From a virus, in the IMG/VR virus record IMGVR_UViG_3300045391_006091, positions 1 to 17,518 of that record: a DNA stretch of 17,518 bases. One strand, given 5' to 3'. The stretch's first letter is position 1; each line of letters opens with the position of its first letter. A program made the position numbers and the translations under genes. Of the stretch, positions 15,200 to 17,518 are shown in pieces. Below the pieces are notes generated by a model. It searched no databases. It was not told the origin of the DNA and worked only from the letters and a program-made list of their open reading frames with translations.

Positions 15200-16546
15200 T
15201 CACTCGACTTCGGCTGTGGACCTTTTTAGATCGAAGTTCTTGTCTATGAAGTCGATCACGAACGCGGGATCCACATTGCGGTTGAACACGATGTTGGGTC
15301 CGTGGTGATCAAGGTAGACAGCCAAGAGCTTGTTACCCTTGCCGTCAGTGTGTTCCTTCAAGCCCTGCGCTGTGTTCTCACCACATTCATGAGAGCCACA
15401 CTCGTGCTTCCATTGAGGGCGAACAGTAATCTCTCCGTGATTGGCGAAGACATCGCTTGCCCCATCGGGAGTTTCGACATGTTCCACACCATGACGGGGT
15501 GGGCAGTGGAAGTGGACGATACAATCCATTTCTGGGTGGCGCTTGAAGATGATGCGCTGGCTCTGCCCTCCCACTGAAGGCTTCGAGCCGTAGGCCACTA
15601 CGTGGTTCGGTCCTTCGGACTCACACATCACCAGTCCCACCTTGTCGAGCTCGTTGAAGTTGGTCTTGCGGCGGGAAGTGAAGAAGGTCGTGTCCGTCTC
15701 TTTGAAGGCGAAGTGTCCCACGGTGGAGCCGAGGAAGGGTTTGTATGCTCCTTCCTTAATGCAGTGATTCACGACTTCACGGAGCGTTGGGGGAACGATG
15801 CGGTGATCCCATGGAAGTGGATCGCCGCTGAGCACGGTCGAACGAGTGAAATTACCTCTGGCCCTCGACATTGCAATCTCTACCAGCGTGGCGAGTGCTT
15901 CGGAACGGTCGAAGGTCTTTCCGTAGTACGCCTGTTCGGGCGTGATCGTCATGTTGAGCCGTGTGTGGACATCGTTGGCCAACACCAGGTTGCAACTCGT
16001 CGACTTCAGTAGATGCAAGCCAGCCCTGAATTGCTCATCGGGGGTTGCACCAGCCGTGGTCTTGAAACCAACCAAGTAGATGTCTTTCCGCCACTCCCTG
16101 ACTTTCTTGATGATCTTGGTGGCCGGATGCAACTCCATGAGGAACGGACCACCACGAGAAGGAAGTCTGGGCTCATCTTTGCCTGACGGCGTGGTGATGG
16201 GCTCGCCGGAATCACCCTTCTCGATAATCGTCCCTGCGAAGTCGCATAAGGCGACGGGCATGAAGACGATCTTCGTGTCCTCATCCGCGATCAATGTGTT
16301 GATGAGACGCTCGACATCGGCGTTGGTCTCGAGCTTGTCTCCACCAGCCATCTTGGTGAGGTGAGTGTAGACATTGTAGCAATCGCCCTCTTCCCCGTTC
16401 CGTGAAACGTGCATCCGAAGCAGGTTGCCCAAGGACAGGGCAGTTCGTCCGTAGGCTGGAGCGGCAATGGCGAGATGGGGACGAACATGAAATACTGTCC
16501 CGCCGCCGATGATGTGGATGCTAGGCGTCTTGGCCTTCATGTCCAT
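15200..16546 (-). CDS. fusion protein: N-terminal CoaB-like (phosphopantothenate-cysteine ligase / DFP family) domain + C-terminal class II aldolase/adducin-family domain
   Basis: 448 aa. N-terminal domain against E. coli CoaB: [27 protein letters not shown] against [37 protein letters not shown] against [23 protein letters not shown]...CNLVLANDV against YVVGFAAET...LDLICANDV. C-terminal domain against fuculose-P aldolase / MtnB: [11 protein letters not shown] against [22 protein letters not shown] against [26 protein letters not shown] against ATLLQHHGLIACE. AGAGGAAG SD; the start overlaps the upstream gene by 26 nt. Confidence 0.85.
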   Translation of the reverse strand: [448 protein letters not shown]

Positions 16547-16784
16547 CGTCTTCTTCCTCTTCGTAATTGTTGTCTTCTTCGGGATCGATCCATGTGACTT
16601 CTTGCTTCCGTCCGTGGCTCATTGCCTCGAAGGCTGGGTAGACCTCCAAGCATGGTTCGTCACGCCAGGTCAGAACTACGACCCCGTTCTTGAACATCAC
16701 TCCCTCGGCTACTTCGTAGTCAGGAGGATCGTCCTTGTCAGGGACGTCGGACTTCCAGCGCATGATTCGAAAACGTCTCGCCAC
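16521..16784 (-). CDS. small protein with strongly acidic C-terminal tail (DPEEDNNYEEEEDDGHEGQDA), 87 aa
   Basis: GTG start at 16782-16784 preceded by GGGGATGAAGTA. The start overlaps the TAG of the upstream 54-aa gene (TAGTG). Confidence 0.5.
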   Translation of the reverse strand: MARRFRIMRWKSDVPDKDDPPDYEVAEGVMFKNGVVVLTWRDEPCLEVYPAFEAMSHGRKQEVTWIDPEEDNNYEEEEDDGHEGQDA

Positions 16785-16948
16785 TACTTCATCCCCACGA
16801 AAGAGATCACGGCAACCATGATTGAGATGACCCAGGTTACGATGCCGATACCAGCGACTTCATACCTGCTCGGCTGAAGAAGCGCACGCAAGTAGTAGAT
16901 CGTGAAGAAGCCAGCAATGATGCACGAAATGAGCTGGAACCACGTCAT
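16784..16948 (-). CDS. unannotated 54-aa two-TM membrane protein (MTWFQLISCIIAGFFTIYYLRALLQPSRYEVAGIGIVTWVISIMVAVISFVGMK)
   Basis: Not on the ORF track because it is under 60 aa. ATG at 16946-16948 lies 1 nt after the TGA of the phosphoesterase gene, with GGAGG at a 6-nt spacing. Two hydrophobic helices. Its stop TAG overlaps the next GTG start. Hand-translated codon by codon. Confidence 0.5.
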   Translation of the reverse strand: MTWFQLISCIIAGFFTIYYLRALLQPSRYEVAGIGIVTWVISIMVAVISFVGMK

Positions 16949-16949
16949 G

Positions 16950-17518
16950 TCAGCCTCCGGTTTGGGCGGGATTCTTGTCGAACTCGTAGATCTTGACCGC
17001 TTGGTCTAGGGGTTGGAGATTGGACGCGAGTCCTTGGATGGTGGTGTTCTCGTACTGGCTCTCGTAGTTGACGTGATAGTGGCCATGAACGTGAAGTTGC
17101 GGTTGGAACATTCGGATGACCTTGGCGATACAGCTTTGAGACCAGCGAGCTTTGATCATGAAGAGGATCTCGTCGGTGTCTTTGATCCCAGGTGGAGGCC
17201 ACGCAGCGTCGTGAGAAACAAAGACGTCGATGGGCTTGCTCCTGAGATGGGACATCGTAATCTGCATGTCCTTCTCGGTGATCTCCTCTTCTGGCCACCA
17301 CGGCGCTTTGTTCTGGATGCGCCAACTCTTGTCGATGCTGGGAGCTCCGCCGAGGAACAAGAAGCGGCAGCCGTCCACATCTTCATGAATTGAGCCACGA
17401 TGCTGATACGTTATGCCCTTCGCTACGTTGTTCTCGACTGGTGGTAGTTCGTGCAACCTCGTGTGATCATCGTGGTTGCCGTCGCAGAAGCGCATTCTCA
17501 AGTTTCGGTGCTGAAGCA
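16950..17518 (-). CDS. calcineurin-like metallophosphoesterase, 5'-truncated by the window edge
   Basis: Metallophosphatase motifs in order: GNHDD (motif III), GGAPSID, VFVSHD, HVHGHYH (GHxH). Motifs I and II (DxH, GDxxD) are missing because the reading frame stays open upstream to position 17518 (…LQHRNLRMRFCDGNHD). Confidence 0.8.
   Translation of the reverse strand, partial: LQHRNLRMRFCDGNHDDHTRLHELPPVENNVAKGITYQHRGSIHEDVDGCRFLFLGGAPSIDKSWRIQNKAPWWPEEEITEKDMQITMSHLRSKPIDVFVSHDAAWPPPGIKDTDEILFMIKARWSQSCIAKVIRMFQPQLHVHGHYHVNYESQYENTTIQGLASNLQPLDQAVKIYEFDKNPAQTGG

Follow-up and report, generated by a model that had tools for sequence, protein, structure and literature searches.

A CoaB-fold and class II aldolase-fold fusion family seen from a probable huge-phage contig, and its tentative link to nucleotides derived from NAD and ADP-ribose

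The string of minus-strand genes at the end of the viral record IMGVR_UViG_3300045391_006091 (17,518 nucleotides (nt), analysed at full length and referred to as the window hereafter) raises the question of what its 448-residue member is and whether this protein functions together with the genes packed next to it. The initial annotation had read the protein as a CoaB/DFP-family fold joined to a class II aldolase domain and had placed it at the centre of a small-molecule biosynthesis or modification module together with a metallophosphoesterase (MPE) and a tiny membrane protein. The first part of this reading is borne out by structure prediction, profile comparison and full-length homologues, which document that both folds reside in one chain, and the second part finds no counterpart in the loci of related proteins. 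Judged from its sequence, the fusion is a divergent relative of CoaB, i.e., phosphopantothenoylcysteine synthetase (PPCS), and of the class II aldolases, which lacks one defining catalytic feature of each.

The AlphaFold2 model of the fusion reached a predicted local distance difference test score (pLDDT) of 92.6 and a predicted template modelling score (pTM) of 0.89, and Foldseek supports both folds, whereby that of the C-terminal domain is nearest to FucA and the nearest solved CoaB structure is 2gk4. Profile comparison places the N-terminal half accordingly, as a profile of 48 family members matched 2gk4, the CoaB of S. pneumoniae, with an E-value of 5.7e-10 over nearly the whole of this half, and with 1.3e-10 once stand-alone N-terminal domains from phages were added. 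The three Pfam models by which the initial annotation had proposed to verify its domain calls gave a mixed outcome: (i) Aldolase_II (PF00596) matched residues 273-429 with 29.4 bits and hence above its gathering score of 22.2, (ii) PF04127 gave no match to the fusion at E<=0.1 and (iii) Metallophos (PF00149), directed at the MPE, scored 0.018 and remained below its cutoff because the N-terminus of this protein is truncated at the contig end. The CoaB models of NCBIfam likewise covered only residues 122-195 of the fusion, with 22-35 bits vs cutoffs of 217-265, the similarity of the C-terminal domain to any solved member of the aldolase fold is marginal (E ~0.08-1), and the BFVD viral structure library held no match to the fusion at E<0.08.

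A frameshift, named as a possibility near nt 15815-15855 in the initial annotation, or a misassembly that fuses two genes was excluded by full-length homologues and an invariant domain junction. A search of 5.8 billion proteins, clustered at 90% identity, yielded at least 3,212 significant matches to the fusion when 8,000 candidates were scored; the best 120 homologues all measure 415-526 residues, cover 97-100% and are 52-59% identical. An exhaustive hidden Markov model (HMM) search of 1.84 billion cluster representatives recovered 294 clusters (50% identity) at E<=1e-30, and the residues where the two domains meet, R228, F233 and T234, are the same in all 48 aligned sequences. The search for the same fusion elsewhere, as recommended earlier, thus returned full-length relatives by the thousands, and what had appeared to be an unusual fusion peculiar to this locus is the standard architecture of a family that counts over 3,200 clusters (90% identity). 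Identity as a canonical CoaBC was considered and rejected; Pfam detected no flavoprotein (CoaC) domain in the fusion. Both folds and their single-chain architecture, and hence identity and architecture of the fusion, are assigned with high confidence.

The N-terminal domain is only 13-19% identical to the CoaB/PPCS structures 2gk4, 1u7z, 6th2 and 1p9o, and differs from CoaB in being joined to an aldolase-fold domain in place of CoaC and in a gene context without recognised CoA-pathway genes. The scaffold motifs of CoaB were nonetheless found to be kept, namely GGGT, A99xxD102(F/Y), G160-F-K-T-T and L-A-N191-D192-V, all of which are also present in the stand-alone phage versions. Of these, A99/D102, G160-F-K-T-T and A190-N-D-V align with 2gk4 and 5int, where CoaB has AAxxD(Y/F), GFxxET and xANDV. 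N191, D192, A99, D102 and R127 do not vary, either across the fusion family or across the stand-alone versions. The lysine of the CoaB KxKK segment aligns one residue off the invariant R127, so that their equivalence is uncertain. As the motifs of the nucleotide site are kept, the N-terminal domain is suggested to still bind a nucleotide, and it may catalyse or reverse nucleotidyl transfer. What was replaced is the CoaB loop carrying Asn210, which in the E. coli enzyme reportedly provides triphosphate contacts and the asparagine for the second half-reaction, according to the work of Kupke and Stanitzek. In the profile alignment to 2gk4, AAPAYGRTA faces ITNHSTGHLG, and within the family (consensus A-A-P-A-Y-G-x-T-A) A31 and G33 are invariant and Y32 is nearly so; H20, R22 and H24 are newly conserved in the N-terminal domain of the fusion family. 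The replacement, from which a different substrate had been argued before, was confirmed at residues 28-36, and the loss of the phosphate/Asn loop makes a non-CoaB substrate likely. The N-terminal domain also occurs alone, as a protein of 210-270 residues in Pseudomonas Otagovirus and Caulobacter Bertelyvirus phages, where its genes lie among small early-type genes and no aldolase half was found near them. Examples annotated as hypothetical protein are phiPsa315 gp098 (L003 4007-4636) and CcrSC gp055c (L004 3989-4789).

The superfamily of the C-terminal domain (PF00596) comprises FucA, AraD, RhaD, MtnB, APIP, HMPDdc and pyruvic oxime dioxygenase, from which the fusion differs by always carrying a CoaB-like domain in front. 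The zinc histidines of the HxH and HHG motifs, pointed out in the initial annotation, are present and invariant (H345, H347 and H415); H345/H347 align to VHTH of AraD and to VHNH of FucA, and H415 to QHHG of FucA. Retention of this His3 site suggests that the C-terminal domain carries out metal-dependent chemistry, and the reactions known for its fold include aldol, epimerase, dehydratase and decarboxylase chemistry and extend to that of dioxygenases. The active site is, however, not the canonical aldolase site that had been implied, since the position of FucA Glu73 and AraD Asp76 is taken by Gly326. This glycine was found in 48 of 48 aligned members, opposite KPSSDTPTHR of AraD and KPSAETLLH of aq_1979, and hhalign placed E73 of E. 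coli FucA opposite G326; FucA Asn29 corresponds to His278 of the fusion. E382, C383, G384, S385, H386, C388 and G389 are invariant in the 48 sequences, together with C342, and this inserted ECGSHxCG loop and C342 may provide a further metal site or an acid in a new place.

Table 1. Features of the fusion gene and its neighbours in the window, with partner genes from compared loci (aa, amino acids; ORF, open reading frame; TM, transmembrane segment)
Feature	Position	Strand	Basis or remark
Fusion protein, 448 aa, CoaB/PPCS fold + divergent class II aldolase fold	15200..16546	-	ORF, AlphaFold2, homologues
N-terminal domain, aa 1-230, CoaB/PPCS fold	15857..16546	-	
AAPAYGRTA loop, aa 28-36, replacing the CoaB N-H-S-S-G-K-M-G phosphate/Asn210 loop	16439..16465	-	translation, alignment
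ALCDF, counterpart of CoaB AAVADY	16238..16252	-	aligned to 2gk4, 5int
SGKDEPRL, counterpart of CoaB KxKK segment	16163..16186	-	aligned to 2gk4, 5int
LANDV motif, aa 189-193, common to CoaB	15968..15982	-	aligned to 2gk4, 5int
C-terminal domain, aa 231-448, divergent class II aldolase/adducin fold	15200..15856	-	
10-residue motif, aa 322-331, aldolase KPSSE/D with the acid replaced by Gly326	15554..15583	-	alignments
H345-F-H347, equivalents of FucA zinc ligands H92/H94	15506..15514	-	invariant in 48 sequences
Loop E382-C-G-S-H-E-C-G389, family-specific	15380..15403	-	invariant, no counterpart in aligned aldolases
Third ligand H415 (HHG, aa 414-416), equivalent of FucA H155	15302-15304	-	invariant
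MPE, N-terminal ~50-60 residues off the contig end	16950..17518	-	phrog_1649 3.9e-22
54-aa hydrophobic (two-TM-like) ORF	16784..16948	-	codon score 0.31; no family match
87-aa acidic ORF, GTG start (alternative ATG 16764)	16521..16784	-	codon score 0.22
113-aa "signal-peptide" ORF, probably not a gene	14845..15186	-	codon score -0.34; no family match
Partner c2, locus L001	11245-11574		
Partner c2, locus L168	9281-9610		
Partner c2, locus L169	9302-9631		
Partner c2, locus L170	9305-9631		
Partner c2, 19 other loci			

Cellular members of the family derive mostly from Saccharibacteria and other bacteria of the candidate phyla radiation (CPR), from Polyangiaceae/Myxococcales, Bdellovibrionales and Micavibrio-like and other Alphaproteobacteria, and many of the contigs with viral members measure 200-580 kb; phage and cellular members are 55-60% identical. 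The cellular hosts are biased towards a life on other cells (CPR episymbionts, Bdellovibrionales, Micavibrio and Myxococcota). Several matches from archaeal and other metagenome-assembled genomes (MAGs) come from short contigs, which may represent phage DNA assigned to the wrong bin. In their source records the homologues are named hypothetical protein with two exceptions, one being a ribulose-5-phosphate 4-epimerase/fuculose-1-phosphate aldolase and the other a phosphopantothenoylcysteine decarboxylase (NCBI). The earlier description of the protein as uncharacterised stands, as no literature, Pfam or NCBIfam family or defence-system model was found for the CoaB-aldolase fusion.

To relate the fusion to its genomic surroundings, about 170 loci were compared, comprising 80 genome and 80 viral loci encoding the fusion plus several more, and their 3,543 ORF products were clustered. 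None of the neighbour genes in the window clusters with any product of the compared fusion loci, and tblastn of 164 fusion loci with the MPE, the 54-, 87- and 113-residue ORFs and the three next genes gave no match at E<=0.01. The fusion is hence regarded as a self-contained single-gene unit which moves between genomes and is found in many contexts. Its most widespread partner is a protein of about 110 residues (cluster c2, phrog_36447) encoded directly downstream of the fusion, usually in overlap with it, in 23 loci representing 13 of 48 dereplicated lineages. This partner was found in bacterial and viral loci, shows the invariant motifs P..EG, W..HN...HP and H, and has no relative in the Protein Data Bank (PDB) or Pfam, its only match being phrog_36447 of unassigned function; an HMM search over six frames did not detect it in the window.

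Regulatory genes recur next to cellular members, with a TrmB-family regulator located divergently upstream of the fusion in 29 of 80 genome loci (CPR) and a LysR regulator beside it in five proteobacterial or myxobacterial loci. Among the other recurrent neighbours, an ADP-ribosylglycohydrolase (ARH) was found in 21 loci, in 20 of these within about 4 kb of the fusion, and CYTH (15 loci), HD_4 (11), His_Phos_1 (10) and NADAR (8) proteins are encoded near it. Within the viral loci, RNA ligases (16/80), CYTH (12/80), HD_4 (9/80) and Thg1 (7/80) occur in its vicinity, and an MPE family other than that of the window (cluster c29) lies within 8 kb in 6/80. In four Saccharibacteria MAG contigs (L027, L041, L059 and L071) the TrmB-fusion pair resides inside a compact and complete island for the salvage of nicotinamide adenine dinucleotide (NAD), which holds NadE, NrtR, His_Phos_1, ARH, a PncA-like isochorismatase, NAPRTase, Nudix, PnuC and NadR. 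The huge-phage contigs of 318-492 kb, which hold the best relatives of the window protein, display the order RNA ligase, fusion, 109-residue partner and CYTH, followed by an optional Nudix gene, ARH and optionally a protein with an NAD-synthase domain, the RNA ligase lying two to four genes upstream of the fusion. Genes of NAD and ADP-ribose (ADPr) metabolism are near the fusion in 31 of 150 loci and 7 of 48 dereplicated lineages; the genes that recur around it in the approximately 170 loci include none recognised as belonging to the CoA pathway. In large phages, genes for NAD-ADPr processing have been described from early regions devoted to host manipulation and RNA repair, and NADAR alone is reported for over 48% of the phages of medium and jumbo size (PMC9503650).

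Considering the two domains and this gene company, the reading which we tentatively prefer, at somewhat less than even confidence, is that of a single-gene nucleotide-dependent enzyme that acts on NAD- or ADPr-derived substrates. It is the company of ARH, Nudix, CYTH, NAD-synthase-like proteins, RNA ligase, NADAR and the NAD islands which makes NAD/ADPr nucleotides the likeliest substrates, and (phospho-sugar) nucleotides of this kind are put forward as the substrate arena of the fusion with slightly more reserve still. The suggested course of events assumes that the N-terminal domain would bind a nucleoside triphosphate or a nucleotide moiety and would transfer a nucleotidyl group onto an acidic group of a phosphorylated substrate, or reverse such a transfer. 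The metal held by the His3 site of the C-terminal domain would then promote enolisation-type chemistry, be it epimerase-, aldolase-, dehydratase- or decarboxylase-like, on the sugar-phosphate-like part, whereby the same or the next intermediate would be processed. For the phage, an auxiliary or counter-defence role against the products of NAD+ depletion or against ADPr-derived signals may be envisaged.

Several observations weigh against this assignment. The NAD/ADPr association is seen, as a raw count uncorrected for the background frequency in huge-phage genomes, in only 7 of 48 lineages; as NADAR is common in medium and jumbo phages (PMC9503650), co-location in accessory islands may explain much of it. 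The window itself encodes neither c2 nor CYTH, ARH or Nudix, and c2, albeit the most widespread partner, is a protein without known fold or function. The loss of Asn210 and of the aldolase acid puts catalytic activity of either domain in doubt, and the domains of the fusion are absent from a comprehensive survey of NAD-ADPr systems in viruses, which mentions neither aldolase nor CoaB or Dfp (PMC9503650). A more far-reaching version, according to which the fusion, often with c2 and CYTH, forms the catalytic core of an unrecognised pathway of NAD+/ADP-ribose-derived nucleotides shared by huge phages, episymbiotic CPR and predatory bacteria, is considered doubtful; such a pathway would provide a third route rebuilding NAD+ from ADP-ribose, or would destroy ADPr-derived immune signals or toxins.

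Secondarily, the gene company points to RNA-end repair or modification, in which case the CoaB-like domain would bind the terminus of an RNA or nucleotide, or nucleotidylate it, and a ribose-phosphate end would be processed by the aldolase-like domain. The RNA ligase, Thg1, CYTH, HD_4, His_Phos_1 and MPE genes of the viral loci are consistent with this idea, as are the RNA ligase upstream of the huge-phage fusions and the MPE three genes upstream in the window. However, the contexts in CPR, Polyangiaceae and Bdellovibrionales are devoid of RNA-repair genes and instead show TrmB and LysR regulators typical of small-molecule metabolism, and no nucleic-acid-binding domain was detected in the fusion, which renders a function in RNA repair unlikely. 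The same regulators would suit an ordinary sugar-phosphate enzyme, i.e., an aldolase, epimerase or dehydratase to which the CoaB-like domain is added as a regulatory or nucleotide-sensing appendage, since TrmB, the divergently adjacent regulator, is described as sugar-specific; the invariant His ligands and the proximity of the fold to FucA fit as well. Yet the catalytic/metal-binding Glu/Asp is Gly in every member, sugar kinases, isomerases or transporters do not recur nearby, and the N-terminal domain is conserved as well as the C-terminal one and exists as an independent phage protein, so that this explanation is deemed just as unlikely as RNA-end repair.

Loss of both parental hallmarks (Asn210/SSGK and Glu73) could alternatively mean that the protein is catalytically dead and sequesters a nucleotide, e.g., an ADPr-derived immune signal, as a binder, sponge or pseudoenzyme. 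Phages are known to soak up nucleotide signals with sponge proteins, and the gene is found among phage accessory and early-type genes. Against this, the metal ligands and many polar residues in both domains are invariant, the family is also present in free-living and predatory bacteria under LysR/TrmB control, and 55-60% identity between phage and cellular members is typical of enzymes, for which reason a dead binder is judged to be quite improbable.

The idea that MPE, 54-residue membrane protein, acidic protein and fusion constitute a dedicated, stoichiometrically expressed module that makes or modifies a small molecule such as a phospho-sugar or nucleotide derivative originates from the layout of the window, where all genes of the string lie on the minus strand and the contig ends inside the MPE gene. 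The junctions described earlier were reproduced: the MPE stop codon (TGA 16952-16950) is separated by one base from the ATG (16948) of the 54-residue ORF (TGA-C-ATG), the TAG (16786-16784) of the latter and the GTG (16784) of the 87-residue ORF have one base in common (TAGTG), and this ORF (stop 16521) overlaps the fusion ORF (ATG 16546) by 26 nt, within which context a Shine-Dalgarno-like GAGGAAG lies 8 nt upstream of the fusion ATG. Only the reported 14-nt gap behind the fusion had to be corrected, as its stop at 15200 is followed by 13 nt. A log-odds score of codon usage, for which the window's four big genes served as training set, is positive for all four ORFs of the string, with 0.32 for the fusion and 0.29 for the MPE. 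Three consecutive junctions of <=1 nt or in overlap make co-transcription and translational coupling of four real ORFs plausible. In a densely packed phage genome such coupling is, however, no sign of shared function, and among the other same-strand junctions in the window 5/12 measure <=14 nt, with only one in overlap.

Conservation decides against the module. The 0/164 loci with neighbour homologues have been mentioned above, and the homologues of the MPE, whose identification in the initial annotation was sound as judged from its PHROG match, point the same way. About 67 of these were found, of about 240 residues and with PF00149/PF12850, and the two examined (on contigs of 183 and 217 kb) are set among small phage ORFs, with no fusion within 5 kb and no relatives of the small ORFs around them. 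The 87-residue ORF is an ORFan, with zero homologues in the search of 5.8 billion proteins and phrog_7499 (3.9e-4) as its sole weak match, and no relative of the 54-residue ORF was found near fusion or MPE homologues. What remains in favour of the module, apart from junctions and codon usage, is the different MPE family c29 near some viral fusions. The string is thus understood as ordinary phage gene packing and no conserved module, the latter being very unlikely. Least probable of all, and close to dismissal, is a non-canonical CoA enzyme in which a PPCS acquired an aldolase-fold decarboxylase instead of the flavoprotein CoaC. In its favour, 2gk4 is a real monofunctional CoaB, one member is annotated as a decarboxylase of this pathway and decarboxylases with the aldolase-II fold are known (2z7b, YgbL). 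However, the SSGK loop and Asn210, which CoaB chemistry requires, are missing, the NCBIfam CoaB scores fall far below their cutoffs and CoA-pathway genes were not recognised among the recurrent neighbours.

Of the four or five chained genes assumed before, four look coding; the fifth, a putative signal-peptide gene, does not. Its 113-residue ORF is probably spurious, since the codon score is negative overall and worst (-0.87) in the half overlapping a coding-like convergent ORF on the plus strand (14775-14999, 74 residues, codon score +0.16, weak match to phrog_4030 with 1.3e-4). This plus-strand ORF ends with a zinc-ribbon-like CPFCGC, and 14495-14797 (+) looks coding too. The string accordingly consists of four genes ending at 15200, opposite two convergent plus-strand genes (14495-14797 and 14775-14999). 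A promoter and terminator scan revealed nothing convincing between the string genes or downstream of the fusion, and tRNA and Rfam scans of the window gave no matches. PADLOC models matched neither the fusion nor the 54- and 87-residue ORFs, and the fusion as a known defence system was rejected for lack of a PADLOC protein-model match. The MPE matches the PADLOC candidate-system model PDC-S10 (3.2e-7), and the related huge-phage contigs L165 and L167 carry two paralogous MPE genes about 3 kb apart.

As to its origin, the window is most likely a fragment of a huge (megaphage-type) phage genome, in which the genes at 15200-17518 form the last part of a tightly packed minus-strand string that is probably transcribed as one unit. 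Both the fusion and an AAA ATPase of the window match the 595 kb record LR756511, and phage origin of the contig is supported by a complete GyrB-like topoisomerase II large subunit (6999-9122, minus strand; phrog_543 1e-153). The ATPase itself (4125-6578, minus strand) is an 817-residue AAA+ protein (phrog_10440 3e-111) with a domain resembling the C-terminal domain of ribosomal L7/L12 at residues 195-235 (1.4e-6), weak PADLOC matches to IetA and TRIP13 and relatives in many Pseudomonas and Stenotrophomonas phages as well as in LR756511. A 267-residue ORF at 13719-14522 (minus strand) has a weak CHAP match (0.0036, below cutoff) and may encode a peptidoglycan hydrolase. At 10347-12947 (minus strand) an 866-residue ORF resembles the Major Vault Protein (MVP), with matches to MVP_shoulder (2.6e-28), Vault_3 (1e-10) and the Vault repeat (0.002); within the phage collection, full-length matches (41-43% identity) were found only in three records of uncultured phages, which measure 462-735 kb. 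A single report of MVPs in viruses exists (preprint 10.1101/2023.11.10.566534), and ADP-ribose is reported to bind in the shoulder pocket of eukaryotic vaults (preprint 10.64898/2026.05.01.722283). Under the far-reaching pathway reading given above, the window phage may possess two unrelated ADPr-handling proteins, the fusion and the MVP homologue, and the occurrence of the latter in huge phages is worth an analysis of its own.

Among known systems, CoaBC (Dfp) resembles the fusion in that one chain combines a CoaB fold with a further catalytic domain for the next intermediate; it differs in that the CoaB-like domain of the fusion is N-terminal, i.e., the order is reversed, in that the partner has an aldolase fold and not that of a flavin HFCD decarboxylase, and in that the CoaB motifs of the fusion have changed. 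CoaB forms dimers, and class II aldolases form tetramers with sites at the subunit interfaces. With the NAD+/ADPr repertoire of phages (Macro, NADAR, ARG/ARH, Nudix, SLOG and NadV/NadM/NadR; PMC9503650) the fusion shares partly the same neighbourhoods and the occurrence in very large phage genomes, but it is not homologous to any listed component of this repertoire or of the NAD+ reconstitution pathways, and it is gene context that suggests its membership of this network.

Within the window only the fusion gene deserves to be followed up, and it is worth biochemistry, for which the cultured Otagovirus and Bertelyvirus phages offer tractable systems as regards the function of the N-terminal domain. 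It represents a family of thousands of strongly conserved sequences which is unnamed and without a Pfam or NCBIfam model of its own. As two well-understood scaffolds have had their signature catalytic residues replaced in a conserved way, the chemistry of this family is probably new. The occurrence in huge phages, CPR episymbionts and predatory bacteria points towards NAD+/ADP-ribose conflict and salvage, as do the recurrent ARH, Nudix, CYTH and NAD-salvage neighbours. If the suggested role in NAD/ADPr metabolism holds true, the fusion would add a new enzyme to this network, which is currently central to phage-defence biology.

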